Below, piece by piece: positions 24,547 to 55,346 of a stretch of DNA of 64,000 nucleotides. Below the pieces are notes generated by a model. That model made no database searches, was not told the origin of the DNA, and saw only the letters and a list, made by a program, of their open reading frames with translations. Within the stretch, counting starts at the first letter, position 1. Every line of letters starts with the position of its first letter. The translations under genes were made by a program, and so were the position numbers. This DNA comes from a virus. The stretch lies in the IMG/VR virus record IMGVR_UViG_3300046010_009647, positions 15,500 through 79,499 of that record. One strand, written 5' to 3'.

Positions 24547-24600
24547 GGGTCTAAAGCAACAACACTGGCCCCCGTGAATCAAGGATTCGTGTCCAGTAGG

Positions 24601-24627: not shown

Positions 24628-24632
24628 AGATT

Positions 24633-41918: not shown

Positions 41919-42151
41919 TAGTCTTCAGATTTACTGGTATCTTTTTTCTTTTTTAACCCTACCAGGGTTTGACGTAACCGTGCTTGCTTTACGGTCTTGT
42001 CATCATATTTATCTGGACTAGCAAGGACATTAGCCTGGAGCTGAGCAGAGGTAATACCCTTCTTCTTAGCCTTGGCAGTGAAGGCGCCTTCCTTCATCTC
42101 CATACCTTGAATCCACTTCTTGTCTTTCTTTTTCTTTTCAGCCATGATCAA
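41918..42151 (-). CDS. Small basic protein (KWIQ...GAFT...KQARL type)
   Basis: Lys-rich, typical small phage virion protein. Confidence 0.6.
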   Translation of the reverse strand: MIMAEKKKKDKKWIQGMEMKEGAFTAKAKKKGITSAQLQANVLASPDKYDDKTVKQARLRQTLVGLKKKKDTSKSED

Positions 42152-45100
42152 CGACTCCGACGTTTACCAGCACGGCGTCCTGCTTGTGCCATAAGTTGTT
42201 GAGTTACAACTTCAAGGCCAGAGGGAAACCTTTGTGGTGAAAAAACAATTTTTTCTGGTTCAACTTTAGCAAGGGCTTGCCTTGTTGATTGCATCTCAGT
42301 GCCAATACGTTGCGGGTCAAGTGCTTGTAATTGTTGGCCGAGGTCACCAAAGCGAAGCGTCATCGGCTTCGAGGGTTGCTGTGTTGTGCCAAGTCGTGTT
42401 CCAACCGAAACTCCTGCTGGATATTGCTGAAGATTGGTTTCAGGTACCAAGTAGAATTCACGTGTGGGTCCAATAATCGGACCGCCGGTGTAAAGAGGTT
42501 TGTTGGCTGGACTGGTGAGCCTACGCTGCTGTTCTGGTGTTTGAGCAGATTTAAGCTCAACAGAACCGTAATAAGCAGACGGCCCTTCCTCTAAGTATGT
42601 ATCTACATCAACGATATCTTCGGAGCCGTAACCAACACGTTCACCCGTAGGTTTACCAGAAAGATCCTTGGGTGAGAACATGACATCCCTTGGAACAGGA
42701 CCCGAAACCCTACGTGTAAGAGAGGGGTCAGCTTGCGAAACACTCCGATAGTTTTTGGGCATTAAGCCTTCTTGTTGTGCAGCGATAAGATCTTCGTTTG
42801 TAATTGGATAAACTTCACCACTCTTGCCAAGGCTTACCAGGTGCCTTTGGGCTGCTGGATTTCCAGGGCGTCCAATAATGCCTTGGACAAATTCGTAAGC
42901 AGTAGGTGACTCAAGAACAGGAAGTTGAATTCCTTTTTCCGAGCGAAGCTCATTTTGAACACGACCCGCAATGCGCACGTTGGCCTGTGGAACCTGGACG
43001 CCTGCTTGGCGGGCAGCTTTAGCAACAGGATTCTCTTTAAGATTTCCACGGCCTGCGGCCATGTTTAAGAAATTATTAATAGACTGAATACTTTCAGTAG
43101 GTACGCCAATCTTGCTGAGGTTTGAAGCTTCACGTTTAGCTTTTGTCAATTCGTCGTTTAATTGACGTTGTGCGCGGATCATGGCATCTTCCATATCAGC
43201 GCGACGAACGCGAGCGGCATAACTGACAGGGTTACCTTCTGTATCTTCAACCTGGAGAGGAGCCTGAACAATTTCATCGGTTGCCTCATAAACATCCGAA
43301 AGGAAGTTATAAGGTTTGCCGTATTGTGAAACGCCTTGTTTCCTGACTTGGCCAACAGGTTGATTAATGGCTGCATTAAGTGCAGTCATTTCTTGTTCAT
43401 AAGCATCGTTAGAAATTAATCCTTGCTTAAGTTGACGCTGTAGATTGCGCTCAGCGCGTTCAACGTTTTTAGATTTAGAAAGCAATCCAGGGATTGCTAC
43501 AGGTTGCGTAGTAATGTAATCAGGATCGTAAGGCTTGCGTCCAATTTTGTATAGATACTCACCGGTTTCCTCACCAGTATCCGATAAACGTGTTAAGTCA
43601 AGATCAGAAACAGTTAAGTTCGTAAGCGTTGGTTCAGACTCTCCGGGGGCAAAAGTAACTCCTTGTGCAATTTTAGTTTGACGACCAGCCTTTGTGGTGT
43701 AAGGGCTGTACTGAATGTTGTACACTTCATCAGGAATTTCTATGTCAGGTGCCCCACCAACTAGGCGCCCTTTCTGAGAACCGCGTCCGGATTGGGGAGT
43801 AATTACCTCACCCGTTGGCGCATCAAAGTACAATCCTTCCTGCAAACCTTCTTGTACATATTTGCTCTGCCCAAGATCACCAACGGTTCTTTCGTATACG
43901 TCGGTTAAAGTACGACCGGTGTCAATGTATTTTTGAGCTTTGACACGAAGTTCCGGCATTTGTTTGCCAAACGCTTCTGCATCTGCAATTGCACGTTCCT
44001 TGTTAACAAGGAAAGGAACTTCAACCTCTACTTTTTCACCTGCTTCAACGCGTCGGATGGTGTCTTCGTCAAGCATTTCGCGGAAGCGCTGTGTTGGATA
44101 CAAGTTACCATCATTGTCGGCTTCAATGCGAGTAGGTATATCTAGGTCATACGCATCAATAGGCCGCACTTCTCGAGAGGGAAAATAAATGCCGGTATCA
44201 GGACCTGCACGATGAAGTGTGTCCCATTCTGTTGCAAATTTATCAATGCCGTATTGATATTGTTCAGAAAGTTTTTCTTGTTTAATTCGACGCGTTTCAA
44301 GGTTTTCTGTCTGACGTGTCAAAAACTCTTGTGGATCAGTTAAAAGAGTTTTTCTAGAGGGGTCGACTGTTTCAACTACCTCAACACCTCCTTCAACGCC
44401 AAACAAATCTTGCAAAGGATCATAGTCGCCCTCTTTAAGTTCAAGAACAGATTCTTTTCCTCCACGGAAAGAACGCCGTACTTCACCTGTGGGATTTACC
44501 AAATCACCTGACACAATACGACCTGTGCGATCAACGTCTGCATTTACAACATTTAGTGCTCTAGCAAAAGCGGTTGGCCCTCCTTCAACAGTTGCAGCAT
44601 TGTAAGAAGGATCCAAGAAGTCGCGGTTACCTGTGTTTGCAAAAGCTTCGATACGAGCATTGATTTCAAACTCAGGCAAGCCGGCTTCACTCAGTTGACT
44701 AAGGGCTGGGCTGACATATTGGGCTTTATCACGACGAGTTAATTGAGCTTCTTTAATATCTCGTTGTTCGTTTTCAACTGTGTTCCTGTAATCTTGTTGA
44801 TCAAAACCTGTGTCATTAGCTTTGTTCTGTTGAGACACAACAGAAGGTGCTTCTTTTTGCTGGAGAGTTGTTAAGTCAACTGTAGCTTGAGGAATTGCAG
44901 CGGGAGGTGCTGCAACTTTTGAAGGGGAAGGAGTCGCACGCAGTGGAGGAGTGGCAGCAACAGTAGAAAGATCAGCTTGCTTAACACCTAACCCTGTTTG
45001 TTTTGTTTGAGAAGGACGACGGCCAGCTAATTTCATAGCGCCATACGTACCAGCGCCCAAAACACCTAAGCCTGCTGCTACAGCACCAAGAATCCCTGGT

Positions 45101-45249
45101 ACATTTGACTCCTCTTGCGGTTGACGAAGCTGATTACGGCGGAATTCAAGTACCTGTGGTGCTAACTCAGCCTTTTCTTCCGGATCTTCGGGGTATGGAG
45201 TCCCAGTGGCACGGCTGTATGCGGCAAAATCGGCAGGTGATAACGCCAT
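42148..45249 (-). CDS. Large putative internal virion protein, 1033 aa
   Basis: MALSPADFAAYSRATG start, one TM-like segment, long hydrophilic body. Confidence 0.6.
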   Translation of the reverse strand: MALSPADFAAYSRATGTPYPEDPEEKAELAPQVLEFRRNQLRQPQEESNVPGILGAVAAGLGVLGAGTYGAMKLAGRRPSQTKQTGLGVKQADLSTVAATPPLRATPSPSKVAAPPAAIPQATVDLTTLQQKEAPSVVSQQNKANDTGFDQQDYRNTVENEQRDIKEAQLTRRDKAQYVSPALSQLSEAGLPEFEINARIEAFANTGNRDFLDPSYNAATVEGGPTAFARALNVVNADVDRTGRIVSGDLVNPTGEVRRSFRGGKESVLELKEGDYDPLQDLFGVEGGVEVVETVDPSRKTLLTDPQEFLTRQTENLETRRIKQEKLSEQYQYGIDKFATEWDTLHRAGPDTGIYFPSREVRPIDAYDLDIPTRIEADNDGNLYPTQRFREMLDEDTIRRVEAGEKVEVEVPFLVNKERAIADAEAFGKQMPELRVKAQKYIDTGRTLTDVYERTVGDLGQSKYVQEGLQEGLYFDAPTGEVITPQSGRGSQKGRLVGGAPDIEIPDEVYNIQYSPYTTKAGRQTKIAQGVTFAPGESEPTLTNLTVSDLDLTRLSDTGEETGEYLYKIGRKPYDPDYITTQPVAIPGLLSKSKNVERAERNLQRQLKQGLISNDAYEQEMTALNAAINQPVGQVRKQGVSQYGKPYNFLSDVYEATDEIVQAPLQVEDTEGNPVSYAARVRRADMEDAMIRAQRQLNDELTKAKREASNLSKIGVPTESIQSINNFLNMAAGRGNLKENPVAKAARQAGVQVPQANVRIAGRVQNELRSEKGIQLPVLESPTAYEFVQGIIGRPGNPAAQRHLVSLGKSGEVYPITNEDLIAAQQEGLMPKNYRSVSQADPSLTRRVSGPVPRDVMFSPKDLSGKPTGERVGYGSEDIVDVDTYLEEGPSAYYGSVELKSAQTPEQQRRLTSPANKPLYTGGPIIGPTREFYLVPETNLQQYPAGVSVGTRLGTTQQPSKPMTLRFGDLGQQLQALDPQRIGTEMQSTRQALAKVEPEKIVFSPQRFPSGLEVVTQQLMAQAGRRAGKRRSR

Positions 45250-45607: not shown

Positions 45608-45634
45608 GCCGGGGCTAAATACCCCGGCATTTTT
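45608..45634 (+). terminator. Rho-independent terminator
   Basis: GCCGGGG/CCCCGGC stem plus ATTTTT. Confidence 0.8.
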
Positions 45635-45870: not shown

Positions 45871-46137
45871 ATGACGACAGTAATGACGACGATTAGCACA
45901 GATGAGATGACTAGCCGACTTGTCGATGCAGCGTTCGCGCTGCGAGCAGGCAAGAAGGTTGTCATGAAGCCTGGCGTGCTGCGAGCCAGTGGCTGGTCAG
46001 CTAGCCAAGTGATTAAGTTCTTGTTAGAGGAACTGTATGAGTGCGAAGTTTACATGGATAACGACGTGATGTGGAAGGTGTGGATTACACGCCGCCCCGA
46101 AGATCACGGATTAGTTATCGAAGGCAGTTGCCGTTGA
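45871..46137 (+). CDS. Early hypothetical protein
   Basis: ORF track. Confidence 0.55.
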   Translation: MTTVMTTISTDEMTSRLVDAAFALRAGKKVVMKPGVLRASGWSASQVIKFLLEELYECEVYMDNDVMWKVWITRRPEDHGLVIEGSCR

Positions 46138-46351
46138 CGATTGTAATTTACCCTGGTGAGAGCCAGGGTTTACTACAGCCCTCAATCCCTACATTCCCCA
46201 CCTAATTACCGTACAATCCTTGTCAATTCACTAGGTATTTATACCTTTTGATACGAATTCGTATCGCGCGCGACCTCATTTAGGCTACAGCTGGGGGTTG
46301 GTCTTACAGAACAGTTGCAGCATATACCCGACCTACAGACTCGGGATTAAC

Positions 46352-46376
46352 CGTCAAGCTGGACGTTAAACGTAGC
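46352..46376 (+). ncRNA. Divergent H-type pseudoknot (family B)
   Basis: CGTC-AAGCTG-GACG-TTAAAC-GTAGC. Confidence 0.5.
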
Positions 46377-46401
46377 AGACAACTCGGCGGTCGGTCACGA
46401 C

Positions 46402-46435
46402 CTTGGCATCCACACTTCAGTGGTTTAAGTCCAAG
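46402..46435 (+). ncRNA. Family A bulged-stem RNA motif
   Basis: CTTGG-CA-T-CCAC-loop-GTGG-TT-TAAGT-CCAAG. Confidence 0.65.
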
Positions 46436-46454
46436 CTCACCCTACGGAGTAACC

Positions 46455-46652
46455 GTGGACTACACCGTCAACATCATCGAGCGTAACGGTCAGTACTTCC
46501 TCCAAGAAGTCTTTGCAGTTACTGAGTTCCAGTATGTGGAACAAGTGACTGCAGGTCCGTTCCAAGCTCGATGGCAAGCAGACGTGCGACGCTCACAGGA
46601 GTATCCGGCATACCGGGGACTAACTGATGAGTACTGCCGTCTGCAACACTGA
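46455..46652 (+). CDS. Early hypothetical protein
   Basis: GGAG RBS, GTG start. Confidence 0.6.
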   Translation: MDYTVNIIERNGQYFLQEVFAVTEFQYVEQVTAGPFQARWQADVRRSQEYPAYRGLTDEYCRLQH

Positions 46653-46716
46653 TCCGTTAAAGCGGGTTGGGAGGTGCAAACCCTCCCACAGTTATTGCCC
46701 CCAGCGGAGATGGGCA
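46648..46716 (+). ncRNA. Family C T-loop three-way junction plus hairpin
   Basis: ACTG/CAGT, CCG-TTAAAG-CGG, TGGGAGG-TGCAAAC-CCTCCCA, TGCCC/GGGCA. Confidence 0.65.
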
Positions 46717-46736
46717 CCGCACACACGGAGAACACC

Positions 46737-46817
46737 GTGACCTTCACCGTTACCGAAACACTCGCACTCGCCGCCATCTTTGTGGTGGCATGTGTGATCG
46801 GTTACGTTACCGACTGA
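46737..46817 (+). CDS. 26-aa single-TM peptide
   Basis: GGAG plus GTG; MTFTVTETLALAAIFVVACVIGYVTD. Confidence 0.6.
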   Translation: MTFTVTETLALAAIFVVACVIGYVTD

Positions 46818-46878
46818 TCCGTCTAAGCGGGAGGCAGGGTGCAAACCCCTGCCCAGTCATTGCCACAATCCCGTGGCA
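46812..46878 (+). ncRNA. Family C T-loop three-way junction plus hairpin
   Basis: GACTG/CAGTC, CCG-TCTAAG-CGG, GGCAGGG-TGCAAAC-CCCTGCC, TGCCAC/GTGGCA. Confidence 0.7.
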
Positions 46879-46894
46879 TCTACACCAAACGACA

Positions 46895-47074
46895 GTGACT
46901 CAACGCATTGCAACCTACGTGATCATCGCTGCTTCCATCATGGGTATTGGTGGGCAAGCCGTTATCTACTTCACAGATAAGGCAACTGCTCACCAATGCA
47001 TTAACCATGACTGGCCTAAGGAGCATGACACACTCCACCGTAACTGGTGCATCACCAACGGTTACGACATCTGA
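46895..47074 (+). CDS. Small membrane-anchored protein
   Basis: GTG start MTQRIATYVIIAASIMGIGG...; Cys pair. Confidence 0.6.
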   Translation: MTQRIATYVIIAASIMGIGGQAVIYFTDKATAHQCINHDWPKEHDTLHRNWCITNGYDI

Positions 47075-47137
47075 GTCCGTTTAAGCGGCGTTCCAGGGTG
47101 CAATTCCCTGGTTCAGTATTGCCACAACTCAGTGGCA
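47071..47137 (+). ncRNA. Family C T-loop three-way junction plus hairpin
   Basis: CTGA/TCAG, CCG-TTTAAG-CGG, CCAGGG-TGCAATT-CCCTGG, TGCCAC/GTGGCA. Confidence 0.7.
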
Positions 47138-47153
47138 TCTCACGACACTACCT

Positions 47154-47315
47154 ATGACTTACTACGTCATCATCAAGAATCACGACGAATTCTCTCAGGC
47201 TTATCTCCAGGGCTGTGAGCAATCATTTAATACTGAGCAACAAGCTCAGGATTACATTCAAACATTTGAGGATTGGGAGCAAGATCTCCTGGAGATTGAC
47301 TTCAATCCTTTCTGA
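47154..47315 (+). CDS. Small acidic protein, 53 aa
   Basis: MTYYVIIKNHDEF...FNTEQQAQDYI...DFNPF. Confidence 0.6.
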   Translation: MTYYVIIKNHDEFSQAYLQGCEQSFNTEQQAQDYIQTFEDWEQDLLEIDFNPF

Positions 47316-47376
47316 GTAACAGGCGTGATGCCAGGGGATCAAATCCCCTACTCAGTATTGCCACAATCCCGTGGCA
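47312..47376 (+). ncRNA. Family C T-loop three-way junction plus hairpin
   Basis: CTGAGT/ACTCAG, GGCG/TGCC, AGGGG-ATCAAAT-CCCCT, TGCCAC/GTGGCA. Confidence 0.65.
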
Positions 47377-47394
47377 TTTACTCAACTCAACACT

Positions 47395-47643
47395 ATGCTG
47401 TGCTACTACCCATACGAAGGTGCAACCGAGCGCATCACCTGGCATGGAGGAGAATCAACCATGCTTCACTACCAAGTGCAGGTTGATGACTACAAGGGAG
47501 ATCCTGACTGGATCGACCGTTACTCCCAGACACTTGGCGGAGGTATCCCTTGTGGTACTAAGGAGTTATTAGCTGCTATGTCTGATTACTATCAGCACAT
47601 CAGCCAACTCCATCTCGACACAATGGCTGGAACTATCTTCTGA
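47395..47643 (+). CDS. Early hypothetical protein
   Basis: ATG after CTCAACTCAACACT linker. Confidence 0.6.
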   Translation: MLCYYPYEGATERITWHGGESTMLHYQVQVDDYKGDPDWIDRYSQTLGGGIPCGTKELLAAMSDYYQHISQLHLDTMAGTIF

Positions 47644-47644
47644 T

Positions 47645-47692
47645 TCCTGCTCTAAGGGGCTTCGGCCCTTTACTGCAGGATTCAACTCCTGC
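47645..47692 (+). ncRNA. Family D two-state hairpin
   Basis: TCCTGC...GCAGGA...TCCTGC with inner TTCG hairpin. Confidence 0.5.
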
Positions 47693-47711
47693 TCCCATAC
47701 CACACAACACC

Positions 47712-47900
47712 ATGACTAAACTCAACATCCGTAAGAACCTTGCGTCAATCCTTGCCAATACTGCAGCAGCAGTTGAGAATGCCAAGGTACCTACCAAGGC
47801 AGGCATGACAGAGAAGCTGAACGAGTATCGTACTCGGGCGGCGGCACTCATCATGCCGAACGACATGGCATTCATCATCCAACCCAAGCAAGGTAACTGA
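47712..47900 (+). CDS. Early hypothetical protein
   Basis: ORF track. Confidence 0.6.
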   Translation: MTKLNIRKNLASILANTAAAVENAKVPTKAGMTEKLNEYRTRAAALIMPNDMAFIIQPKQGN

Positions 47901-47903
47901 TTC

Positions 47904-48119
47904 ATGCGACGCAACTACCAACGTAACTACTTCTCTGACTCCTGTGTTGCTATTGTTCTCGGCACTGGTCTTGGCTTATTCCTATCTGTTGGAGCACAGA
48001 AAGTTCTCAACAGACACTACAAGGCCACGTGCCACAACCAACCAGGACATAACCTGATCTACACCAAGTCTTTCCTTGGTGACACGTACTTTTGCATCAA
48101 TGCAAAGTACATGAACTGA
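47904..48119 (+). CDS. Small membrane-anchored protein
   Basis: TM helix, Cys pair. Confidence 0.6.
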   Translation: MRRNYQRNYFSDSCVAIVLGTGLGLFLSVGAQKVLNRHYKATCHNQPGHNLIYTKSFLGDTYFCINAKYMN

Positions 48120-48120
48120 T

Positions 48121-48181
48121 CTCTGCACTTAAGCCTTCTCATCCTTGTGATGCGTGGCTTTTCTGCAGGGTTCTCCCTGCA
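48121..48181 (+). ncRNA. Family D two-state hairpin
   Basis: CTCTGCA...TGCAGGG...CCCTGCA with inner AAGCC/GGCTT. Confidence 0.5.
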
Positions 48182-48199
48182 CTACACCAAACAACACCA

Positions 48200-48481
48200 A
48201 TGACAATCACGATCAGCCCCAGAGAAATTACAGATGCTCAACAGATGTTGAACATCGAACCAAACGACTGTTACCTGGAGTTTACGCAAGGTACTGTCTA
48301 TCTTTGTTGGGTTACCGACAAGGAGACAGCTCAGATGTATATCGACAACCTCTTCGAGTGTGTCGATGTCAAGTTGTACGGCAATTGGGTAGACATCTAC
48401 GGACAACACGAACGTGAAGTCCCAGTGTCATTACCCGATGTCAAACTGTTTGACTGCCGTTACATCCTCGCTACTAACTGA
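48200..48481 (+). CDS. Early hypothetical protein
   Basis: ATG after A/C-rich linker. Confidence 0.6.
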   Translation: MTITISPREITDAQQMLNIEPNDCYLEFTQGTVYLCWVTDKETAQMYIDNLFECVDVKLYGNWVDIYGQHEREVPVSLPDVKLFDCRYILATN

Positions 48482-48482
48482 C

Positions 48483-48686
48483 ATGAAGACAATCTACTCA
48501 ATGGGCAAAGGCAAGTATGTGATCCTTGATTCTTATGAGTCTTATCCTGAGAATCGCCTTGGATCTATTGCTATTGCCCTCCTCGCACTCCTCCTTGCCA
48601 CCATCAGTGGCACAGCATTGTTGGGTGTGGATCTTACCAAGATCAATCCACAGCCCGTCAAAGCACAACCTACAATCACTCGCTGA
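48483..48686 (+). CDS. Small membrane protein
   Basis: TM helix IAIALLALLLATI. Confidence 0.55.
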   Translation: MKTIYSMGKGKYVILDSYESYPENRLGSIAIALLALLLATISGTALLGVDLTKINPQPVKAQPTITR

Positions 48687-48687
48687 C

Positions 48688-49044
48688 ATGACCACACAAC
48701 TCAAAGAACACACCGAAGTACTTGAGGCACGCATCCAATGCCTGATCGACAAGCTGCTTGCACATTACGCTAAACAGTACGGAGATGGCGGCATTGCATT
48801 TGACATGGTCAAAGGCGTCAAGTACTACAAGCTCATCCAACGTGACGTCAAACGCTCAACGTTGAATGGCAACACTGGTGCCTGCGTGCATGCATTCATT
48901 CATCGCCAGACTGGCTGTGTCTTTAAACCAGCAAGCTGGAAGGCACCAGCTAAGCACGTACGTTATAACCTCATGGACGAGGTATCGTTTGCCACCTGCA
49001 TCCAAGATGCTGATTGGGCTGGCTCATACCTCTACATGAAGTAA
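48688..49044 (+). CDS. Conserved phage hypothetical protein
   Basis: KYYKL...VHAFI...G.VFKPASWKAPAKHVRYNL. Confidence 0.75.
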   Translation: MTTQLKEHTEVLEARIQCLIDKLLAHYAKQYGDGGIAFDMVKGVKYYKLIQRDVKRSTLNGNTGACVHAFIHRQTGCVFKPASWKAPAKHVRYNLMDEVSFATCIQDADWAGSYLYMK

Positions 49045-49052
49045 CCACAAAT

Positions 49053-49105
49053 CCCTGGGCCTTCGTTGTTGAGAATCTTTCGCAACAAGGATGTAAGTCC
49101 CAGGG
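49053..49105 (+). ncRNA. Family A bulged-stem RNA motif
   Basis: CCCTGGG...long variable stem...TG-TAAGT-CCCAGGG. Confidence 0.65.
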
Positions 49106-49133
49106 CTATCCCAAACACCACAGCAACTAACCA

Positions 49134-49508
49134 ATGCGTACTCGAATTTCAATCGTCAAAGAAGATAGGATCTGGAACCTGAGGTGCCAGGGCTATCGTT
49201 ATGACTCCATTGCACAAATTGTTAATTGCAAACCGGTATCCATTACACAAGTCATTAGACGTGTACGTAACCGTCCTCCGTACGAGCAAGATCCTGTGCG
49301 TCGTGGAAGATTTAATTCTTTCTTGAGCGATGCACAGATAGAAGATATTCGTACCCGTAAAGCGCACGGAGAACACGTCTCCAAACTTGCAGAAGAATAC
49401 TACATCACTATTGCAGCTATCTATCACATCACTTCATACCGCACCTACAAGAACCCTTGTGGTGACAGTGGTTATCAATTCAATTTTAACAATCGTTTAA
49501 TGTCCTGA
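49134..49508 (+). CDS. Tandem HTH DNA-binding protein
   Basis: GYRYDSIAQIVNC and VSKLAEEYYIT..AIYHI HTH-like segments. Confidence 0.65.
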   Translation: MRTRISIVKEDRIWNLRCQGYRYDSIAQIVNCKPVSITQVIRRVRNRPPYEQDPVRRGRFNSFLSDAQIEDIRTRKAHGEHVSKLAEEYYITIAAIYHITSYRTYKNPCGDSGYQFNFNNRLMS

Positions 49509-49510
49509 TC

Positions 49511-49548
49511 ACTGGGCATCCACACGCAATGTGGTGTAAGTCCCAAGT
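49511..49548 (+). ncRNA. Family A bulged-stem RNA motif
   Basis: TGGG-CA-T-CCACA-CGCAA-TGTGG-TG-TAAGT-CCCA. Confidence 0.7.
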
Positions 49549-49572
49549 ACAAACCATTCAACTCACAACACA

Positions 49573-49779
49573 ATGACAGAAGACAACAAGCGGTATCACC
49601 TCATCATCAACGTTGATGAAAAGTATGCCATCGTCAACGCACTAGCCTTCTATCATGCACACCACACCCTGGGTGCATTGATGGATGAAGATGAGTGTGA
49701 ACAATACATGCTCGCATTCCAAGAAGATGGTCCTGCCTTTGTTGATTCCCTAGCAACAAAGGTGGCCAATACCTTCTGA
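49573..49779 (+). CDS. Early hypothetical protein
   Basis: ORF track. Confidence 0.6.
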   Translation: MTEDNKRYHLIINVDEKYAIVNALAFYHAHHTLGALMDEDECEQYMLAFQEDGPAFVDSLATKVANTF

Positions 49780-49780
49780 T

Positions 49781-49823
49781 CCCTGGGCAGCACCGACGTA
49801 AATACGGTGTGTAAGTCCCAGGG
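49781..49823 (+). ncRNA. Family A bulged-stem RNA motif
   Basis: CCCTGGG-CA-G-CACCG-loop-CGGTG-TG-TAAGT-CCCAGGG. Confidence 0.75.
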
Positions 49824-49852
49824 TTTTACTGTCTACCTACTCAATTCAAGCA

Positions 49853-49990
49853 ATGACTGAACTCGATCCCAACTACAACGCTGACTTGCTTGATGCCATG
49901 GCTGACATGGCATATGAACAAGAGCAAGCCATGCGTGAAGAATACGAACTCAACCCACCTGAACTGGAGACTTACGATGACCAAGCCTAA
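49853..49990 (+). CDS. Very acidic 45-aa peptide
   Basis: MTELDPNYNADLLDAMADMAYEQEQAMREEYELNPPELETYDDQA. Confidence 0.55.
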   Translation: MTELDPNYNADLLDAMADMAYEQEQAMREEYELNPPELETYDDQA

Positions 49991-50077
49991 GTACACACTG
50001 CGTCAAGCATGGGATGACGGTGACATCATCATCATCCTGATCGCAATCATTTCAATCATCATCACAGAGTTTGCATC

Positions 50078-50446
50078 ATGTCTTACATCTCAGAACTCAA
50101 GAAGTTCTACCCCAAGTCCTACAAAGCACGCTTCGCAATCAATGCCTACAACGTGCACAAGTACTTCGAGCACAAAGACCCAACGGTCGTCACGGTCCAC
50201 GAAACCTATCTCAGGTACGGCGGAACCGAAGAAGGAGGTTGGTACTACACCCAAGGAGACCCTCTCGTCAGCCACTGCATCTTCTCCAAGAGGCAAGCGG
50301 TCCAGGTCTACGTCAAGTACTTCGAAGAGTACGAGATCGAAGGCCAACCTTCTCTTGGAGATACGACAACTCGATCCAACATCGACATCAGTTTCTCCAA
50401 TGAACTAGCTAAGGCTTACCCTGAATCCCGTCCGTACTACTGCTGA
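50078..50446 (+). CDS. Conserved phage hypothetical protein
   Basis: YGGTEEGGWYY...YPESRPYYC. Confidence 0.7.
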   Translation: MSYISELKKFYPKSYKARFAINAYNVHKYFEHKDPTVVTVHETYLRYGGTEEGGWYYTQGDPLVSHCIFSKRQAVQVYVKYFEEYEIEGQPSLGDTTTRSNIDISFSNELAKAYPESRPYYC

Positions 50447-50449
50447 TCA

Positions 50450-50692
50450 ATGCAAGCAACTGCAACACCTGCACTCAGTATCAACCAACGCAATCTCTAT
50501 GCGTACTACCTTAATCACAAGAAGAAGTATGGGAACACACCCTGCTTCGTACCTAAGCTTCCATCGCAAAACTCAAGGCTTGAGCAATATCTCCAGGCCT
50601 TGGTGAGACTGGAAGAATACGGATTGATACGTGTAGACAGAAGCAGTGCTAACTACACAGCATGGATCATGCTTGCACCTAAGAGCGCATAA
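50450..50692 (+). CDS. Winged-helix-like protein
   Basis: LSINQRNLY...ALVRLEEYGLIRV. Confidence 0.6.
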   Translation: MQATATPALSINQRNLYAYYLNHKKKYGNTPCFVPKLPSQNSRLEQYLQALVRLEEYGLIRVDRSSANYTAWIMLAPKSA

Positions 50693-50769
50693 CGTAGGTA
50701 TTTATACTTAATATTGTTCGCTATTCGCAAATAGCGAATACATGCCAATACTTCAGTCATAGCCTCAAT

Positions 50770-50810
50770 CCTGGGCGTCACCTACGTAAGTATGGTGTGT
50801 AAGTCCCAGG
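50770..50810 (+). ncRNA. Family A bulged-stem RNA motif
   Basis: CCTGGG-CG-T-CACC-loop-GGTG-TG-TAAGT-CCCAGG. Confidence 0.75.
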
Positions 50811-50813
50811 GGT

Positions 50814-51041
50814 TTATCCGACTACATTACGTACATCAGGTGTAAACCGTTGCATCTGATCTAACAACCTAAGCTCTGCTTGTTTGTTCTGCATCGGAAT
50901 GCTTTCATTCCGTACAACAGATGTTAAGAAGTCCATTACTTTATCTTGTGGTGGCATAGAACCATGAGCCTTCATGTATTCTTGTTGCCATCCTTGAAGG
51001 AAAGGACTGTTATTCATTGCATATCTACCAGCTAATAACAT
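50814..51041 (-). CDS. Late-type small protein in opposite orientation
   Basis: MLLAGRYAMNN...; TAGGAT -10 box upstream on the minus strand. Confidence 0.55.
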   Translation of the reverse strand: MLLAGRYAMNNSPFLQGWQQEYMKAHGSMPPQDKVMDFLTSVVRNESIPMQNKQAELRLLDQMQRFTPDVRNVVG

Positions 51042-51070
51042 GGACCTAAGTATGTCCTTAAACTGCTCAG
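51042..51070 (+). ncRNA. Family B H-type pseudoknot
   Basis: GGAC-CTAAGTAT-GTCC-TTAAAC-TGCTCAG. Confidence 0.65.
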
Positions 51071-51097
51071 TCCATCCTACTCACCATCAACTCAACC

Positions 51098-51385
51098 ATG
51101 GAACAAGCTAAGAAGTATCCAGCAATTGACTGGACCAAGAATGAGTATCATCAATTGCAGCTAGTAGTTGATGCACTCAAAGCCATTTGTGCTCGCGAAG
51201 ATAAGCGTCATCAAATGGACGAGCATCTCGATCCACACATGCGTAACGTTGTCGATGAGGTAATCGGCATGTTAGAAGATGAGATCGACTACGATCCAAC
51301 ACCTCACGAACCTGGTGAACCACCCATCACTGCAGCAGAAATGCATGCAGCTGCATGGAAAGAACACCAGGAAATGCATCGATAA
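51098..51385 (+). CDS. Early hypothetical protein
   Basis: DYDPT..GEPPIT..EMH..AW motif. Confidence 0.65.
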   Translation: MEQAKKYPAIDWTKNEYHQLQLVVDALKAICAREDKRHQMDEHLDPHMRNVVDEVIGMLEDEIDYDPTPHEPGEPPITAAEMHAAAWKEHQEMHR

Positions 51386-51558
51386 CATCAGGTAGTACAC
51401 ATGTATTTCCCCCTCACACTCCCCCAAGGAGAACCAGGGGGGAACCTTCTATATACATAAGTACTTCCTATGCATTACATCTTTTAATACACCAATTAAT
51501 CCTTGACAACCCTGGTAGACTAACCAAGTCTTCTAGACCACACATCAATTCAACTCAC

Positions 51559-51768
51559 ATGACAAACTCAAACACTCCTCGCATTCCTGATTCAATTGAC
51601 ATCCAACGTCTTCAAGCTATGCAGCTTGTAGCCAAGATGAAAGAATCAGCTGAGAAACATGGCATTGGTTTTATCGGGGGCTTTATATCCCCCAATGGAG
51701 AGAAATTTGTAATGACAAACATGGATGATGATGATGCCATAGCACTCATGCCGGAGGATCTCAAGTGA
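51559..51768 (+). CDS. Early hypothetical protein
   Basis: ATG after TCAACTCAC. Confidence 0.6.
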   Translation: MTNSNTPRIPDSIDIQRLQAMQLVAKMKESAEKHGIGFIGGFISPNGEKFVMTNMDDDDAIALMPEDLK

Positions 51769-51962
51769 CCAAGAAATCTCCCATTAGTTTTGATCGCACC
51801 ATTCATGGTGTGAACATCACTGAACATGGTATCAAGTCAGTAAGTAAACAGATCAAACTTGGACCATTCCAACTGACTGTCAACGCCAGTCCCAATGGCG
51901 TCAAAGGATCAGTCAGTATTCCTGGCACAGGCTTGAGCATTCCAAACATTAAGTTAATCTAA
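51765..51962 (+). CDS. DUF4236-like protein
   Basis: KQIKLGPFQLTVN.S..G...SVSIPGTGLS. Confidence 0.6.
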   Translation: MTKKSPISFDRTIHGVNITEHGIKSVSKQIKLGPFQLTVNASPNGVKGSVSIPGTGLSIPNIKLI

Positions 51963-51999
51963 AGATCTGGGCATCCTTACGGTGTAAGTCCCAGGTCTT
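51962..51999 (+). ncRNA. Family A bulged-stem RNA motif (minimal)
   Basis: AAGATCTGGG-CA-T-CC-TTAC-GG-TG-TAAGT-CCCAGGTCTT. Confidence 0.75.
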
Positions 52000-52021
52000 G
52001 TCCACCAACTCAACTCAATTC

Positions 52022-52207
52022 ATGTCTGTTTACGTTGACTATCTCAACATGTTTGATCGCATCAATCTTGCTGACTGCGCAAAGCGCAGAGCAAGTGCAA
52101 ATGTTTTAGATGAAACACGATTCAATGGCGAGTACGACACAGCACGTCTGTGGATGAAGTACCGCCTCATCAAGACCACCCACCATTCCTACGTGGAGGA
52201 CAACTGA
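52022..52207 (+). CDS. Early hypothetical protein
   Basis: ATG after CAACTCAACTCAATT. Confidence 0.55.
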   Translation: MSVYVDYLNMFDRINLADCAKRRASANVLDETRFNGEYDTARLWMKYRLIKTTHHSYVEDN

Positions 52208-52458
52208 TGACAGTCCTTGCAATCGAACATACTTCATTCACTGACACTCATGTCACAGTTACAGCAGTTGTTGACGACATGCGCCTGCTCTATCGGGCGA
52301 CTCGCTTTGACCCTGAAGAGTGGGCTCCTGCATTGTGCACAACAACTATTGAGTTGGATCCAGAGGAACCGATTCCTCTTGACGAAGATGGCTTCTGCAG
52401 CTATCTTGATCAACTCGATCCTCTGTGGCAACTACTCGATCTGAGTGACGACGAATGA
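52207..52458 (+). CDS. Acidic hypothetical protein
   Basis: GGAGG RBS; V.AVVDD...AT.FDPEEW.PALC. Confidence 0.65.
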   Translation: MTVLAIEHTSFTDTHVTVTAVVDDMRLLYRATRFDPEEWAPALCTTTIELDPEEPIPLDEDGFCSYLDQLDPLWQLLDLSDDE

Positions 52459-52552
52459 TTGGTTTCTCACTTGAATTCAAACGCTGGTACTTTGTACTGC
52501 GTGGTCCCAAGGGTCGAGTGTACTTGGCAACTGGCTTTATGAAATGATCAAC

Positions 52553-52580
52553 CGTCCTGGGCATGACGTTAAACTGCCTA
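52553..52580 (+). ncRNA. Family B H-type pseudoknot
   Basis: CGTC-CTGGGCAT-GACG-TTAAAC-TGCCTA. Confidence 0.7.
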
Positions 52581-52605
52581 CACTCAACTCAACTCCAACC
52601 TCATC

Positions 52606-54321
52606 ATGTATTTCCAACTCCCCTCCAATCTGCAACAAGAACTCCTGGCTTACGATCCAAAGCTCAAGGCTTTGGTCAAAGAGCAGGAACCTAAGAAGAC
52701 TACGAAGAAAGCTAAGTATCCACTGGGTAATATCCCACATCTTATCCCTGAGAATGTGGTACGTGCTGGTCTACAACAAGATGCGATTGACCGCATCAAT
52801 GCATCAGGTGTACCTGAGCGTTATCACCGCTTTACCAAGGTAGTTGATATCGCTACACCACAAGCACGTACGATTACCATTGCAGTTCTTTATCACTTCG
52901 AGCAATGCTGGTACGCCGCATGGTTACCTGCCAAGGGAGAGGACTATCTCTATGGCTATGCCTATGCATTCAAGAATACTGCTGCTGCAGCTAAAATGTT
53001 GCCTCGCCGTATTTGGGAAAGCAAAGATCAATGCACTGAACACACCATTGGTCGTGGCTCACAGACCTTTACATACTCACGTACTATAACCAAGGAAGAT
53101 GTTATCTCCGGCAATGATGCGCGCAACTGGCGTGCTATGGGTATAGCTAGTTACTACCAGAAGTCACGTGATATGAATGACGCAATCAATAGCTTTGAGA
53201 AAACCTTGATGGAAACAATTCCAACATGGGACGATTGTCGTTCTATGTTTGATCGCATCAAATGTAATAACCTTTTTGATGCACTTGAGTTTCCATTTCC
53301 ACTAACAAACTGTATTGAAGATCGTTCAGCATTCAAGCTAACGGTTGATGGCATGGTTAACCTTGCTAATCGATGGATGGCATCGAATACTTACGCATCT
53401 CTACACTACCTAACCATGCATAGTATTGAACACATTATTACTGCACCTTCTATTAAGAAACAACTTCAACTTATGCTTGACAAATCTGTAGCTGAATACA
53501 ATAACCCTGAGAACAATCAGCGCAAGGCAGTCAAGTATGGCTACAAAGAGTTTGAGCAAACGACAAACTCTATCTACTTCATTAATCATGTGTGGCCTGA
53601 TTGCCCACTTGATTACTACCGTACATACTTTGAAGAGCTACGTGTCGTTAATCTCTATCACCTACGTACCAATGATGCCTTGCTTGCTTGGCTGCGTGAG
53701 CACATGTCTGTTGCATCATTCCTTAATATGATGCGCAAACATGTTGAGAAATCAAATGAAGAGCATTCCAGGATGTCTAAGTTTTCTGATCACGACTTTA
53801 TTATCCATGCATGGTATGAGATGAATGATACGTTCTCAATGATGATGCGTGTCTTTGAGAACGGCAAGACTATCGAAGCACCTAAGCGTTGGCGCATGCC
53901 TGACTTCCATGACTATGTGCAAGCAGAAGCATGGAAGATAGCTAACAAGAAGGAATCGCTGCACCAGGATTTATTCCCTACACCTGTCAAGGTCAGCATG
54001 GGTGACAGTGATTGGACATTCCTTCAACCCATTGACACTCATCAGTTAGCGCAATGGGGACAAGCTGTCCGTAACTGTGTTGGCTCTGCGTCCCAGTATG
54101 CAGAGGACATCAAGAAACGCAATCACTTCATTGTGCTTTGTATGATTGATGGCAAGCCAACCTTCACTATCCAACTGGATGTATCCATGGGTGTGATGAA
54201 TGTCAAGCAGATTGCTGGCGTCGGCAACCAGCGATTGGACGAAGATCAGAAGGAGAAGTACTCCAATGCATTCAAGCTGGCCTTGCAATCTCGGAATGAT
54301 GAGCTAAGCTCTAAGAGCTGA
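52606..54321 (+). CDS. PcfJ-domain protein
   Basis: C-terminal FHD...L..WG..VRNCVGS...Y...FTIQL...Q..G..N. Confidence 0.75.
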   Translation: MYFQLPSNLQQELLAYDPKLKALVKEQEPKKTTKKAKYPLGNIPHLIPENVVRAGLQQDAIDRINASGVPERYHRFTKVVDIATPQARTITIAVLYHFEQCWYAAWLPAKGEDYLYGYAYAFKNTAAAAKMLPRRIWESKDQCTEHTIGRGSQTFTYSRTITKEDVISGNDARNWRAMGIASYYQKSRDMNDAINSFEKTLMETIPTWDDCRSMFDRIKCNNLFDALEFPFPLTNCIEDRSAFKLTVDGMVNLANRWMASNTYASLHYLTMHSIEHIITAPSIKKQLQLMLDKSVAEYNNPENNQRKAVKYGYKEFEQTTNSIYFINHVWPDCPLDYYRTYFEELRVVNLYHLRTNDALLAWLREHMSVASFLNMMRKHVEKSNEEHSRMSKFSDHDFIIHAWYEMNDTFSMMMRVFENGKTIEAPKRWRMPDFHDYVQAEAWKIANKKESLHQDLFPTPVKVSMGDSDWTFLQPIDTHQLAQWGQAVRNCVGSASQYAEDIKKRNHFIVLCMIDGKPTFTIQLDVSMGVMNVKQIAGVGNQRLDEDQKEKYSNAFKLALQSRNDELSSKS

Positions 54322-54370
54322 AGCCACAGCAGGGGCATCCTATCCTCGTAAATGGGATGCCTCTTTACCT

Positions 54371-54580
54371 ATGGACTACACCGATGACCAACTGCTTGCC
54401 ATGGCCATGGCCAACATTGGTGAATACATCACGGACAACTCACCACAGTACATCTTGATTGAAGAAGATCCTCGTAATGAGGATGACTACGATAGCTGGA
54501 CTTACGGAATGGAAGTCCTACCTCAAGACCACACTTGGCAGTCAGATTCAATTGACGTAAGTCCAAGTGAGGCCGACTAG
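54371..54580 (+). CDS. Acidic hypothetical protein
   Basis: ORF; 3' end overlaps an RNA motif and the tRNA 5' end. Confidence 0.55.
   Translation: MDYTDDQLLAMAMANIGEYITDNSPQYILIEEDPRNEDDYDSWTYGMEVLPQDHTWQSDSIDVSPSEAD
54532..54569 (+). ncRNA. Family A bulged-stem RNA motif abutting the tRNA
   Basis: CACTTGG-CA-GTCAG-ATTCAA-TTGAC-G-TAAGT-CCAAGTG. Confidence 0.7.
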
Positions 54581-54646
54581 CCCAACGGCAGAGGCAACGG
54601 ATTTAAGCTCCGTCAAGTCTCGGTTCAAATCCGAGGTCGGCTACCA
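54571..54646 (+). tRNA. trnL: tRNA-Leu(TAA), short variable loop, encoded CCA
   Basis: Acceptor GGCCGAC/GTCGGCT, anticodon stem ACGGA/TCCGT with loop TT-TAA-GC, T-arm CTCGG-TTCAAAT-CCGAG, A73-CCA. Confidence 0.9.
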
Positions 54647-54673
54647 ACCCATTAAACTTTTTACTTAACTAAA

Positions 54674-54871
54674 ATGAATCAAGATCAAGGGATGTTTTTG
54701 CGTGATTGCATTCGTGCTAGCGCTAAAATGATTGCATGCGAACTGGCAGTATTACATGATGTTGCAAGTTCACTTAGCGCTATAACAATTGAACTGAAAG
54801 AGATTAACTCTAATTTATATGACATAGACTCTAAATTATCTAAGCTTGCTGCTCAAACTGAAAAGCCTTAA
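54674..54871 (+). CDS. Coiled-coil hypothetical protein, AT-rich
   Basis: ORF track. Confidence 0.5.
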   Translation: MNQDQGMFLRDCIRASAKMIACELAVLHDVASSLSAITIELKEINSNLYDIDSKLSKLAAQTEKP

Positions 54872-54883
54872 AAATTTGATTAA

Positions 54884-54913
54884 CCTGGGCATCTCTAAAG
54901 TGTAAGTCCCTGG
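54884..54913 (+). ncRNA. Family A bulged-stem RNA motif
   Basis: CCTGGG-CA-T-CT-CTAA-AG-TG-TAAGT-CCCTGG. Confidence 0.7.
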
Positions 54914-54940
54914 CTAACAACTTACCTCCAACTCAACATC

Positions 54941-55303
54941 ATGCAATTCTTTGCTGCTTTCAAGTCCATCATCCCTGAGTTCCATGCTTATGCAGATGAG
55001 GACAAGCGTTACAACATTGGTGCTACCTGGACCGACAACGAAGGTCTGCGTGACTACCACAACCTTGAAATGCGGTACGTCCGTAACTCTGAGAAGCTTG
55101 CGCTCCAGGGTGAGCCACAGCCCGATGGCTCATGGAAATACGTCGAACCCAATGGCAGCGTCCATGTGATCTCAGCAGAACGAGCACGGCACTTCATGGA
55201 GACCACGCAAGCCCATGCCACCATGATGTGTGGAATGCTTGAGCGCCTCAAGGATGCTGGTCTCTATGACAAGTTCATTGACACCGACGCAAATCCTGCC
55301 TAA
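54941..55303 (+). CDS. Hypothetical protein
   Basis: ORF with strong codon bias. Confidence 0.65.
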   Translation: MQFFAAFKSIIPEFHAYADEDKRYNIGATWTDNEGLRDYHNLEMRYVRNSEKLALQGEPQPDGSWKYVEPNGSVHVISAERARHFMETTQAHATMMCGMLERLKDAGLYDKFIDTDANPA

Positions 55304-55321: not shown

Positions 55322-55346
55322 GGCCCCTGCGCAAGCGGGGGTCTTT
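55322..55346 (+). terminator. GC hairpin, probable terminator
   Basis: GGCCCCTGC-GCAA-GCGGGGGTC-TTT. Confidence 0.65.

Follow-up and report, generated by a model that had tools for sequence, protein, structure and literature searches.

Family A, a folded RNA module recurring at gene borders in an S-EIVl-related phage and other cyanophages

The window analyzed here, a 64,000-nt stretch from the 79.5 kb genome of a phage related to Synechococcus phage S-EIVl, contains a repeated bulged stem with a TAAGT bulge, referred to in the following as Family A. The question raised by these repeats is whether they act as RNA or as DNA, and what they do at the places where they occur. The nine copies named in an earlier sequence-only reading were all present, eight on the + strand and one on the − strand. 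The inner stems were as quoted there (CC/GG, CT/AG, CACC/GGTG, CCAC/GTGG, TGC/GCA and GTCAG/TTGAC), and TAAGC indeed occurred once among the nine. When all 79.5 kb of the genome were scanned with a loose pattern, no further Family A copies emerged. The sequence TAAGTCC alone occurred 14 times against 6.3 expected, which is weak by itself. The copies and two adjoining features are as follows:

Copy 1, 46400–46437, + strand: CUUGG-C-A-U-CCAC[ACUUCA]GUGG-U-U-UAAGU-CCAAG (18.6 bits, E 0.01), in a 5' leader, ~158 nt past a promoter/operator-like box and 18 nt ahead of GTG 46455.
Copy 2, 49053–49105, + strand: CCCUGGG ... G-UAAGU-CCCAGGG (z −4.3), with a long P2 (UUGUUG/CAACAA plus an inner hairpin), starting 8 nt past the stop TAA 49042–49044 and ending 28 nt ahead of ATG 49134.
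Copy 3, 49511–49548, + strand: P2 CCACA[CGCAA]UGUGG (28.5 bits), starting 2 nt past TGA 49506–49508 and ending 24 nt ahead of ATG 49573.
Copy 4, 49781–49823, + strand: P2 CACCG[ACGUAAAUA]CGGUG (29.3 bits), starting 1 nt past TGA 49777–49779 and ending 29 nt ahead of ATG 49853, with orthologues in L080, L052, L117 and L122.
Copy 5, 50769–50811, + strand: bulge G, not A, and a second GUAAGU inside the P2 loop (27.2 bits), ~62 nt past a promoter/operator-like box; in relatives, 25–30 nt ahead of the g51098 homologue.
Copy 6, 51965–51996, + strand: the minimal form, CUGGG-C-A-U-CC[UUAC]GG-U-G-UAAGU-CCCAG (50.3 bits, E 3.5e-11), directly after TAA 51960–51962 and ending 25 nt ahead of ATG 52022; at this junction the motif is kept in 10 relatives, with compensatory changes in P2.
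Leader, 51997–52021, + strand: an example of a G-poor leader, 3' of copy 6, ..CCACCAACUCAACUCAAUUC-AUG, without a Shine-Dalgarno sequence.
Copy 7, 54532–54569, + strand: ACUUGG-C-A-GUCAG[AUUCAA]UUGAC-G-UAAGU-CCAAGU (24.8 bits), ending 1 nt ahead of tRNA-Leu(UAA); the orthologue in relatives has UAAGC.
tRNA-Leu(UAA), 54571–54646, + strand: copy 7 is its 5' leader.
Copy 8, 54883–54914, + strand: a degenerate copy with a U·U mismatch in P1 and a CU/AG P2 (32.6 bits, z +0.7), starting 11 nt past TAA 54869–54871 and ending 26 nt ahead of ATG 54941.
Copy 9, 24599–24629, − strand: the weakest copy, UUGG-C-A-U-UGC[UUA]GCA-U-G-UAAGC-CCAA, within a − strand structural-gene operon, starting 5 nt past the stop of a 316-aa ORF (24633–25583).

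A covariance model built from 23 sequences from other phages and one window copy recovered seven of the + strand copies, with E values from 3.5e-11 to 0.01. The − strand copy reached only 10.5 bits (E 1.6), and the sole reason why copy 2 was missed was the length of its P2 insert (38 nt). Folding of single sequences was uneven, with z scores from −4.3 to +0.7 and three window copies folding no better than shuffles, so the case for Family A rests on comparative data. In IMG/VR, 72 phage contigs carry 97 folded instances between them.

The motif has three parts: a closing helix (P1), an invariant asymmetric loop and a free-form distal hairpin (P2). In P1, GG/CC and one C·G pair are invariant and the outer pairs covary; the third pair switches between G-C, A-U and U-A in copies that had not been picked by the scan pattern. 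The loop places an unpaired A on the 5' strand opposite R-U-A-A-G-Y on the 3' strand. This A is nearly invariant (86 of the 97 instances) and is followed by a pair that is either U·U or Watson–Crick (G-C 20, C-G 12, G-U 7, U-A 3, A-U 1). The sequence-only reading had described this region as CR:TG pairs with a bulged nucleotide. It is better read as an unpaired A and then a covarying pair, and once it is read this way copies 2 and 7, which had been set apart as deviant at the CR:TG step, become regular. C8 pairs either with the G that precedes UAAG, which leaves a 5-nt bulge, or with the one that follows, as chosen by RNAalifold; these positions never vary. P2 is free in sequence and in length (3 to more than 12 bp). 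The smallest copies, with 5–8 bp in P1 and 3–4 bp in P2, measure about 28 nt.

Over 78 distinct model matches, pairing was found in 86.1% of cells, compared to 76.5% in shuffles and at most 52.6% in slid registers, and the covariation score was 0.216, compared to 0.071 in shuffles, none of 500 reaching the observed value. RNAalifold recovered P1 and P2 unaided from an ungapped alignment. At one orthologous junction in 10 relatives, P2 was CC/GG, CACC/GGUG, CAACA/UGUUG or longer. GNRA or UNCG loops made up 16 of the 29 tetraloops, where we estimate from base frequencies that chance would give ≈5%. The earlier proposal of a structured element whose bulge is conserved while its distal hairpin varies freely and covaries is thus borne out by the covariation and by the pairing relative to shuffles. 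The role suggested along with it, in which the loop would bind a protein or ligand or make a tertiary contact, is conjectural.

Family A is also uncatalogued, in agreement with the earlier remark that it was not recognized as a named motif. At gathering thresholds, Rfam 15 returned tRNA-Leu only, and with E values up to 10 the region 46000–55200 gave only two chance-level matches, both away from the copies. Kink-turns have a three-nucleotide bulge followed by tandem sheared G·A and A·G pairs; in Family A a G24·A9 pair is possible, but the second position would be U/C opposite C, not A·G, and this class was rejected. Small ribozymes are often found in the intergenic DNA of phages, and an internal loop with about ten invariant nucleotides would suit a small self-cleaving ribozyme or a riboswitch. 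However, neither a further conserved flank nor a pseudoknot partner accompanies the ~28-nt minimal form, ribozyme and riboswitch families were not matched even at E up to 10, and we regard such an identity as highly improbable. A common ligand is hard to reconcile with the downstream genes, which are unrelated: small ORFs, a capsid gene, a tRNA and a gene for a helix-turn-helix (HTH) DNA-binding protein. Ligand sensing is unlikely because copies precede such unrelated genes and a tRNA, with up to nine in one genome. Riboswitches require functionally related downstream genes, and this class was likewise rejected.

The placement of the motif was strongly constrained. According to the sequence-only reading, random orientation relative to transcription would suggest a DNA site; orientation proved to be strand-specific, with 85 instances co-oriented with the local genes and 2 opposed, compared to 22 and 16, respectively, for unstructured pattern matches, which lay mostly inside ORFs. 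Seventy-three of the 97 instances were outside any ORF of at least 70 aa. The median distances were 7 nt past the stop codon and 31 nt ahead of the next start, and the motif usually lay 16–45 nt ahead of that start. The 30 nt on its 3' side, the leader, contained 10% G against a background of 22% (97 instances) and had no Shine-Dalgarno sequence. In the window, promoter/operator-like boxes at 46232 and 50695 each lie upstream of a motif copy. The GNRA/UNCG tetraloops, the co-orientation and the location outside ORFs indicate that Family A is an RNA rather than a DNA element.

A GC-rich hairpin that lies within 15 nt past a stop codon, as found in 74 of 95 cases, might be a transcription terminator or attenuator closing each small gene. 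We consider this very unlikely. No copy has a U-tract, the tails instead reading CUCACC, GCUAUC, GUACAA and similar, and none was called by a terminator scan that did find canonical terminators with a hairpin and U-run at 45608–45628 and 55322–55343. Copies also occur in 5' leaders past promoter-like boxes and directly ahead of a tRNA, and a sequence-invariant loop has no role in intrinsic termination. The lack of a directly following U-tract led us to reject a Rho-independent terminator.

Lying ~30 nt upstream of genes, the motif could instead be a promoter, related to that of Syn5, which a phage-encoded RNA polymerase recognizes, perhaps as an extruded hairpin. TGGGCA and GTAAG occur in this order both in the motif and in the Syn5 promoter, ATTGGGCACCCGTAA-G, which is likewise from a cyanophage (PMC3950665; Syn5 genome sites). 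However, ATTGGGCACCCGTAA is a contiguous 15 bp element without a closing helix or variable insert, whereas the two halves of the motif are separated by 9 to more than 40 nt. P1 closure and covariation would have no role in such promoters, the covariance model did not match Syn5 promoters, and a search of the genome for the T7-type polymerase family PF00940 found nothing. The motif of a T7-like contig is located ahead of the very gene that encodes the polymerase. A promoter of this kind is therefore extremely improbable, and with variable spacing and no PF00940 gene, the motif was rejected as a Syn5-type promoter, which needs a fixed-length contiguous element and a cognate polymerase gene.

The instances in IMG/VR came from four unrelated lineages of cyanophages: S-EIVl-like, T4-like, T7-like and S-CBWM1-like. 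Cultured S-EIVl carries two further copies. In an S-CBWM1-like phage the motif precedes the major capsid gene; in the T7-like contig, the motif-bearing stretch ahead of the gene for the phage RNA polymerase would, by analogy with T7, be transcribed by the host polymerase. Searches of 185,579 cellular species genomes gave no matches, and then 30 at chance level. The motif was absent from the whole genome of cultured S-CBWM1 and from the regions compared in cultured Sf-FS3 and S-SKS1, showing that it is dispensable. The sequence-only reading had gone without this reach far beyond one genome, as well as the stop–motif–leader–start architecture and the gene-cassette boundaries.

Those boundaries became apparent when relatives were compared. 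In the window, a cassette of tRNA-Leu, an ORF and copy 8 is inserted behind copy 7, so that copies 7 and 8 flank it; relatives lack both tRNA-Leu(UAA) and the small ORF after it. L028 and L112 have an additional gene, which is bordered by a pair of identical motif copies. Between relatives, g48688 and g49134 trade places at motif borders, and at one orthologous site S-CBWM1 and uncultured relatives differ in the presence of the motif. The copies thus mark joints of small-gene exchange between these viruses.

These observations also suit a motif that is mainly a DNA recombination joint, similar to PeSL or attC, with conserved halves that would serve the exchange of gene cassettes and a hairpin that is incidental or formed in single-stranded DNA. 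Like attC and REP elements, Family A is a strand-specific, imperfect hairpin, positioned just after ORFs, whose foot is conserved, whose centre varies and which contains extrahelical bases. Integron attC sites have the core sites RYYYAAC / GTTRRRY and depend on an integron integrase, while REP or IS200-IS605-type hairpins occur as near-identical copies within a genome, together with a Y1 (HUH) transposase. Family A has no R''/R' attC consensus, and searches with PF00589, PF00239 and PF01797 found neither a tyrosine or serine recombinase nor a Y1 transposase in the genome. Both classes were rejected, attC for lack of the core and of a PF00589 or PF00239 match, and REP for the wide variation of P2 among copies and lack of a PF01797 match. 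Family A further differs from both in its absence from cells and its RNA-type tetraloops. The strong divergence of P2 within the genome, the compensatory changes that maintain pairing in orthologous copies and the enrichment of RNA-type tetraloops indicate long-term selection on the RNA fold, and a primarily DNA-level role is improbable.

Another lead comes from the ribosome. The sequence UUGGG-UUAAGU-CCCG was confirmed within E. coli 16S rRNA, at h37, the hexaloop hairpin U1086–G1099 (U-GGG-UUAAGU-CCC-G), which belongs to the uS2 contact region next to the mRNA exit. Both h37 and the motif have a GG(G)/CC(C) stem around UAAGU, and the motif looks as if the first U of the h37 loop had given way to C-A-[P2]-G. 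uS2 touches h35–h37 (PMC10931766), and h35–h37 line the mRNA channel with S2 (PMC8406268). The motif might copy h37 and offer a docking site to free uS2 (together with bS1) or to some other partner of h37, either to recruit or modulate ribosomes on leaders without a Shine-Dalgarno sequence or to regulate a group of phage genes as their translational operator; we consider this unlikely. The position 16–45 nt upstream of start codons, ahead of G-poor leaders, is consistent with such a role, and the absence from cellular genomes fits mimicry of an rRNA feature better than mimicry of an mRNA signal. On the other hand, the likeness covers only ~10 nt and may be coincidental, and the third pair of the stem is variable in the phage motif, not a fixed G-C as in h37. 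The E. coli rpsB leader, a known uS2 operator, contains no similar sequence, the uS2 surface is already occupied on mature ribosomes, and one copy precedes a tRNA rather than a coding gene.

The explanation that we prefer, with a confidence somewhat short of even, is that Family A is a portable, cis-acting leader or intercistronic RNA module that is read by a host factor, punctuates and stabilizes phage mRNAs, and serves as a recombination joint. We infer factor binding, and processing or stabilization by the module. The invariant loop would be the docking surface for a factor met by all these unrelated phages in the cyanobacterial cell, for instance an endoribonuclease or a component of the ribosome. 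That this factor comes from the host and not from the phage is suggested by the occurrence of the motif in four unrelated lineages, among which no common phage protein family was found. Since the motif is absent from cellular transcripts, a host enzyme would have to recognize it for another reason. The module might punctuate polycistronic or primary transcripts, defining and protecting the leader of the downstream cistron on its 5' side and holding that leader unfolded. Because the same ~20 conserved bases are present at many gene borders, it could also act as a joint for recombinational exchange of small cassettes. The three window copies that fold no better than shuffled sequence, and the cultured relatives that lack the motif, speak against this explanation.

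In function, such a module may correspond to the hairpins that RNase III processes between the early genes of T7. Like R0.3, R0.5, R1, R1.1 and R1.3 of T7, Family A consists of multi-copy intercistronic hairpins, co-oriented with the genes of polycistronic mRNA, just past stop codons and a few tens of nucleotides ahead of the next start. Both have a conserved helix base, an internal loop on the 3' side and a variable tip, with some GNRA loops. The T7 helix base is CUCAAGGU../..GCCUUUAUGAU, and the T7 sites have no sequence similarity to Family A. T7 sites have a constant upper stem and a helix of about two turns (around 20 bp) around the cleavage loop, whereas P2 of Family A varies from 3 to more than 12 bp. 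Minimal copies, with at most ~12 stacked pairs, are too short for classical RNase III.

The PeSLs of T4-type phages combine a terminator-like stem-loop with a sigma-70-type promoter (PMC2839356, PMC4122927). No sigma-70-like promoter is present inside the Family A units, and the promoter-like matches at 45275, 47752, 48647 and 52379 adjoin no copy; PeSL was therefore rejected as a class. Unlike PeSLs, Family A also has an invariant asymmetric loop and occurs as single copies in unrelated phage lineages. The resemblance between the two is that each is a conserved intergenic motif found on the flanks of small variable genes, where it delimits insertions, deletions and replacements or swaps between close relatives.

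The window comprises bases 15500–79499 of a complete virus genome of 79.5 kb (IMG/VR), whose sole cultured DNA relative is Synechococcus phage S-EIVl. Its genes are arranged as follows:

Up to ~45.2 kb, - strand: structural genes (portal, major head protein, terminase)
After ~45.2 kb, + strand: a block of many small genes, then ThyX, GP88, DNA polymerase A and SSB

The - strand operon is headed by a 1033-aa ORF (42148–45249, - strand). It was considered as a possible hidden polymerase, but Pfam, PHROG and PDB yielded nothing similar and its match in the protein atlas was uninformative, which leaves it unassigned.

Family A is a bulged stem with a closing helix (P1), an asymmetric loop in which an unpaired A faces R-UAAG-Y, and a variable distal hairpin (P2). 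The sequence-only reading had claimed nine copies, eight on the + strand and one on the - strand, and all were found, both by reading the sequence and by a loose pattern scan, which detected no further copy in the whole 79.5-kb genome. The inner stems that it quoted and the single UAAGC variant were also correct. It had not recognized the element as a named motif, and a search of Rfam indeed returned only tRNA, both with gathering thresholds and with E relaxed to 10. TAAGTCC occurred 14 times, compared to 6.3 expected. When the copies were folded as single sequences, z-scores ranged from −4.3 to +0.7, and single-sequence folding was therefore not decisive.

An exact-pattern scan of IMG/VR returned at least 120 loci. 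Matches were sorted by two features outside the pattern, the outer P1 pair and at least two pairs closing P2, which left, with redundancy removed, 97 structured instances from 72 loci among the matches listed; 24 of the listed loci were S-EIVl-like, and about 48 shared two or fewer ORFs with the window genome. A P2 stem was present in 80% of all matches listed, versus 25% for shuffled inserts. Orientation relative to transcription had been set beforehand as a check, and the motif proved strand-specific: among the matches listed, 85 structured instances were co-oriented with neighboring ORFs and two were opposed, and 73 of the 97 lay outside any ORF of at least 70 aa. The 45 unstructured matches among those listed, mainly within ORFs (22 co-oriented, 16 opposed), behave like chance.

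A covariance model was built from an ungapped alignment of 24 minimal copies, the shortest form of the motif. In this seed, column 10 pairs with column 19 as G-C, A-U or U-A, with U.U in the main class; the A before column 10 is unpaired and nearly invariant (86 of 97 among the matches listed). The model recovered seven window copies and produced 87 matches among the loci listed. On these matches, pairing was 86.1%; shuffles gave 76.5%, and slid registers no more than 52.6%. The covariation score was 0.216 versus 0.071 in shuffles (reached by 0/500). In fifteen matches beyond the reach of the original pattern, the third P1 pair alternates between G-C, A-U and U-A, while the core GG-C-A ... G-UAAG-Y-CC is constant. 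RNAalifold independently recovered P1 and P2 from the ungapped seed, with a preference for a C8-G24 pair, a bulged Y and the internal loop A(N)/(N)RUAA; the positions concerned, being invariant, do not discriminate between this and a 5-nt bulge. GNRA or UNCG made up 16 of 29 tetraloops of minimal copies among the matches listed, which is an RNA-hairpin signature. GUAAGU paired no better than in shuffles with the P2 loop or with the 45 nt on either side of the motif, giving no pseudoknot partner there. An alternative fold in copy 6, CUUAC-GUAAG, was confined to the UUAC-loop variant and was rejected as a family-wide structure.

Sub-families of Family A have their own conserved P2 contents, seen as P2 inserts in L005, L029, L012, L045, L047 and L116, and also in L020, L056, L057, L091, L098 and L119:

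Sub-family with P2 content GUCUUGGCGGAUU, at times with a second GUAAGUC
Sub-family with P2 content GCAGGGGUGUA
Sub-family in T4-like cyanophages with the 12-nt loop UUAGCGUUGCAU as P2 content

This conservation suggests added functions on the variable arm.

Three loci (L022, L037 and L106) encode a T7-type RNA polymerase 38% identical to that of Syn5; in these, the motif is flanked by a stop codon and a small ORF and is located 5' of the polymerase gene. Another record, G003, is a T4-like cyanomyovirus (Kyano_Gp96; relatives S-SM2, Sf-FS3 and others). In two further records (G001, G002), the motif is directly 5' of a capsid gene that has 67% identity to its counterpart in Synechococcus phage S-CBWM1, and the covariance model did not find it in the S-CBWM1 genome. 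Ahead of orthologous capsid genes (L135 2436–2500 versus L127 1490–1581), this 32-nt module is missing in cultured S-CBWM1 and present in its uncultured relatives, a clear-cut case of presence/absence polymorphism. These non-S-EIVl-like phages have one copy per record, whereas S-EIVl-like phages have several. Cultured S-EIVl has two, at 40727–40786 and 41437–41477, both intergenic and co-oriented, and is the only one of the cultured phages examined to contain the motif; neither the minimal motif nor the Kyanoviridae-type variant had a BLAST match in cultured phages, and the covariance model found no copy in the Syn5 genome or in the regions of Sf-FS3 and S-SKS1 that were retrieved (~9 kb each). 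In cellular genomes, the strict pattern had 0 matches in 185,579 species. A looser pattern had 30, compared to ~38 estimated by chance; none of the 30 was cyanobacterial, and a P2 stem of at least three pairs was present in four and absent in 26. The occurrence of the motif in four unrelated phage lineages, yet not in cellular genomes, implies that a small, self-sufficient RNA module has spread horizontally. Among metatranscriptomes, only two runs contained parts of the region, in both cases as contigs that had been assembled and came from relatives; where these end near copies (49049, 49786), the ends are those of the assembly and not readable as RNA ends.

Among the matches listed, the median distance from the preceding stop codon to the motif was 7 nt (≤15 nt in 74 of 95), and that from the motif to the next start codon was 31 nt (16–45 nt in 71 of 90); the distances were similar outside the S-EIVl group. 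Across phages, the 30 nt after the motif contained 10% G among the matches listed, compared to a 22% background. A leader word, CAACUCAAC, has seven exact occurrences in the window (0.8 expected) and is frequent behind the motif in the window phage, three of the seven (51088, 52006, 54929) being leaders behind a motif copy. The sequence CAACTCAAC, present seven times on the + strand (0.8 expected; 51088, 52006, 52585, 54929, 58703 and other positions), is always just 5' of a start codon, and these start codons are without a Shine-Dalgarno sequence. The copies at 46400 and 50769 do not follow a stop codon, and 60–160 nt upstream of them is a repeated box, TAGGTATTTATAC, with palindromes. The box occurs twice (46232–46290 and 50695–50745; 0.01 expected), each time followed by a distinct perfect palindrome, GATACGAATTCGTATC and TTCGCTATTCGCAAATAGCGAA, and relatives have TGGCA-N9-TGCCA at the second site. 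These look like two promoter-operator regions within the small-gene block. Another copy ends 1 nt before tRNA-Leu. The constant partner of the motif is therefore the sequence downstream of it.

A 75-aa ORF without family match (50814–51041, - strand) occupies a 290-nt gap behind copy 5. The gap is absent in relatives, where the homologue of the gene starting at 51098 follows directly, and the ORF may be an inserted regulator gene. A second intergenic family forms four consecutive units at 46648–47376, each opening with a small hairpin, CCG-UYWAAG-CGG; three of the four have UAAG in unpaired context (UCUAAG, UUUAAG), and the first has UUAAAG. The Family A loop also contains UAAG, as does UUUAAGC, the anticodon loop of tRNA-Leu(UAA) in the phage.

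An intrinsic terminator was rejected, as no copy has a U-tract, though true hairpin-plus-U sites are nearby. Each of these is a canonical terminator with a GC hairpin and a U-run:

45608–45628: terminator near the start of the + strand block
54330–54365: terminator after the PcfJ-like gene
55322–55343: terminator after the gene starting at 54941

Ordinary terminators are thus in use in the phage in addition to Family A. A promoter like that of Syn5, which has TGGGCA..GTAAG in common with the motif, was also rejected: the spacing is variable, the genome is without a T7-type polymerase, the covariance model gives no Syn5 match, and a T7-like contig has the motif upstream of its polymerase gene. 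Nor is it an attC-like or REP-like element: copies within one genome are divergent, and no recombinase or transposase, Y1 included, was found in the genome. When the ORFs of the 72 loci, among the matches listed, were clustered for a phage-encoded partner, no protein was common to all lineages. DUF7717 (window 48688–49044) recurs in 14 loci among the matches listed and was rejected as the partner, being missing from two complete genomes (G004, G005).

These results establish Family A as a genuine structured RNA module, uncatalogued and restricted to phages, in the transcript leaders of cyanophages. To our knowledge, structured RNA families are few in cyanophage biology, which thereby gains a well-supported, widespread one without curated match. 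The module provides an entry point to how phage mRNAs, both early and late, are punctuated, stabilized or translated in cyanobacteria, where initiation is mostly not led by Shine-Dalgarno sequences. Cultured S-EIVl has two copies, so function is directly testable.

Our preferred reading, which we put forward tentatively, is that Family A would be a processing and stability punctuation mark recognized by a putative host factor. By analogy, its closest functional counterpart would be the T7 RNase III sites, which we folded from the T7 genome. Like Family A, they combine a conserved base with an internal loop on the 3' side and a tip that varies, and they lie between early cistrons. Minimal Family A copies, however, do not reach the length that classical RNase III requires, and a different enzyme or factor would be needed.

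The core also resembles 16S rRNA helix 37 (U-GGG-UUAAGU-CCC-G), a stretch that we verified in E. coli 16S rRNA. Helices h35–h37 are contacted by uS2 (PMC10931766) and line the mRNA channel (PMC8406268). The rpsB mRNA has a known uS2 operator, and comparison of the E. coli rpsB leader with the motif revealed no similar sequence. It is conceivable, but improbable, that the motif mimics rRNA: a helix placed before phage genes without Shine-Dalgarno sequences would carry a copy of h37, the hairpin in contact with uS2, and unrelated cyanophages would have spread it horizontally to capture a ribosomal protein or subunit (uS2/bS1). If so, it would be a viral "landing pad" or r-protein sponge in bacteria.

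Copies of Family A also mark gene cassette boundaries. Ahead of the homologue of the gene starting at 52022, the motif is kept in ten relatives with differing but compensated P2 helices. In two loci (L028, L112), this junction contains an extra gene flanked by two identical copies, with the same 13 nt ahead of both. L017 has a small ORF inserted immediately 5' of the motif. In the window, a unit of tRNA-Leu, an ORF (54674–54871) and copy 8 is inserted behind copy 7, whose orthologue in relatives is directly followed by the homologue of the gene starting at 54941. The genes starting at 48688 and 49134 are in swapped order in the window phage versus L028, L052 and L080, and motif copies lie at the borders. 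This cassette-joint role is a side effect of the module, and it provides a concrete basis, at the level of sequence, for how S-EIVl-type phages shuffle small early genes like cassettes. The same boundary behavior has been described for the PeSL elements of T4-type phages (PMC2839356, PMC4122927). Although PeSL units contain a promoter and Family A units do not, Family A likewise bounds insertions and swaps between relatives.
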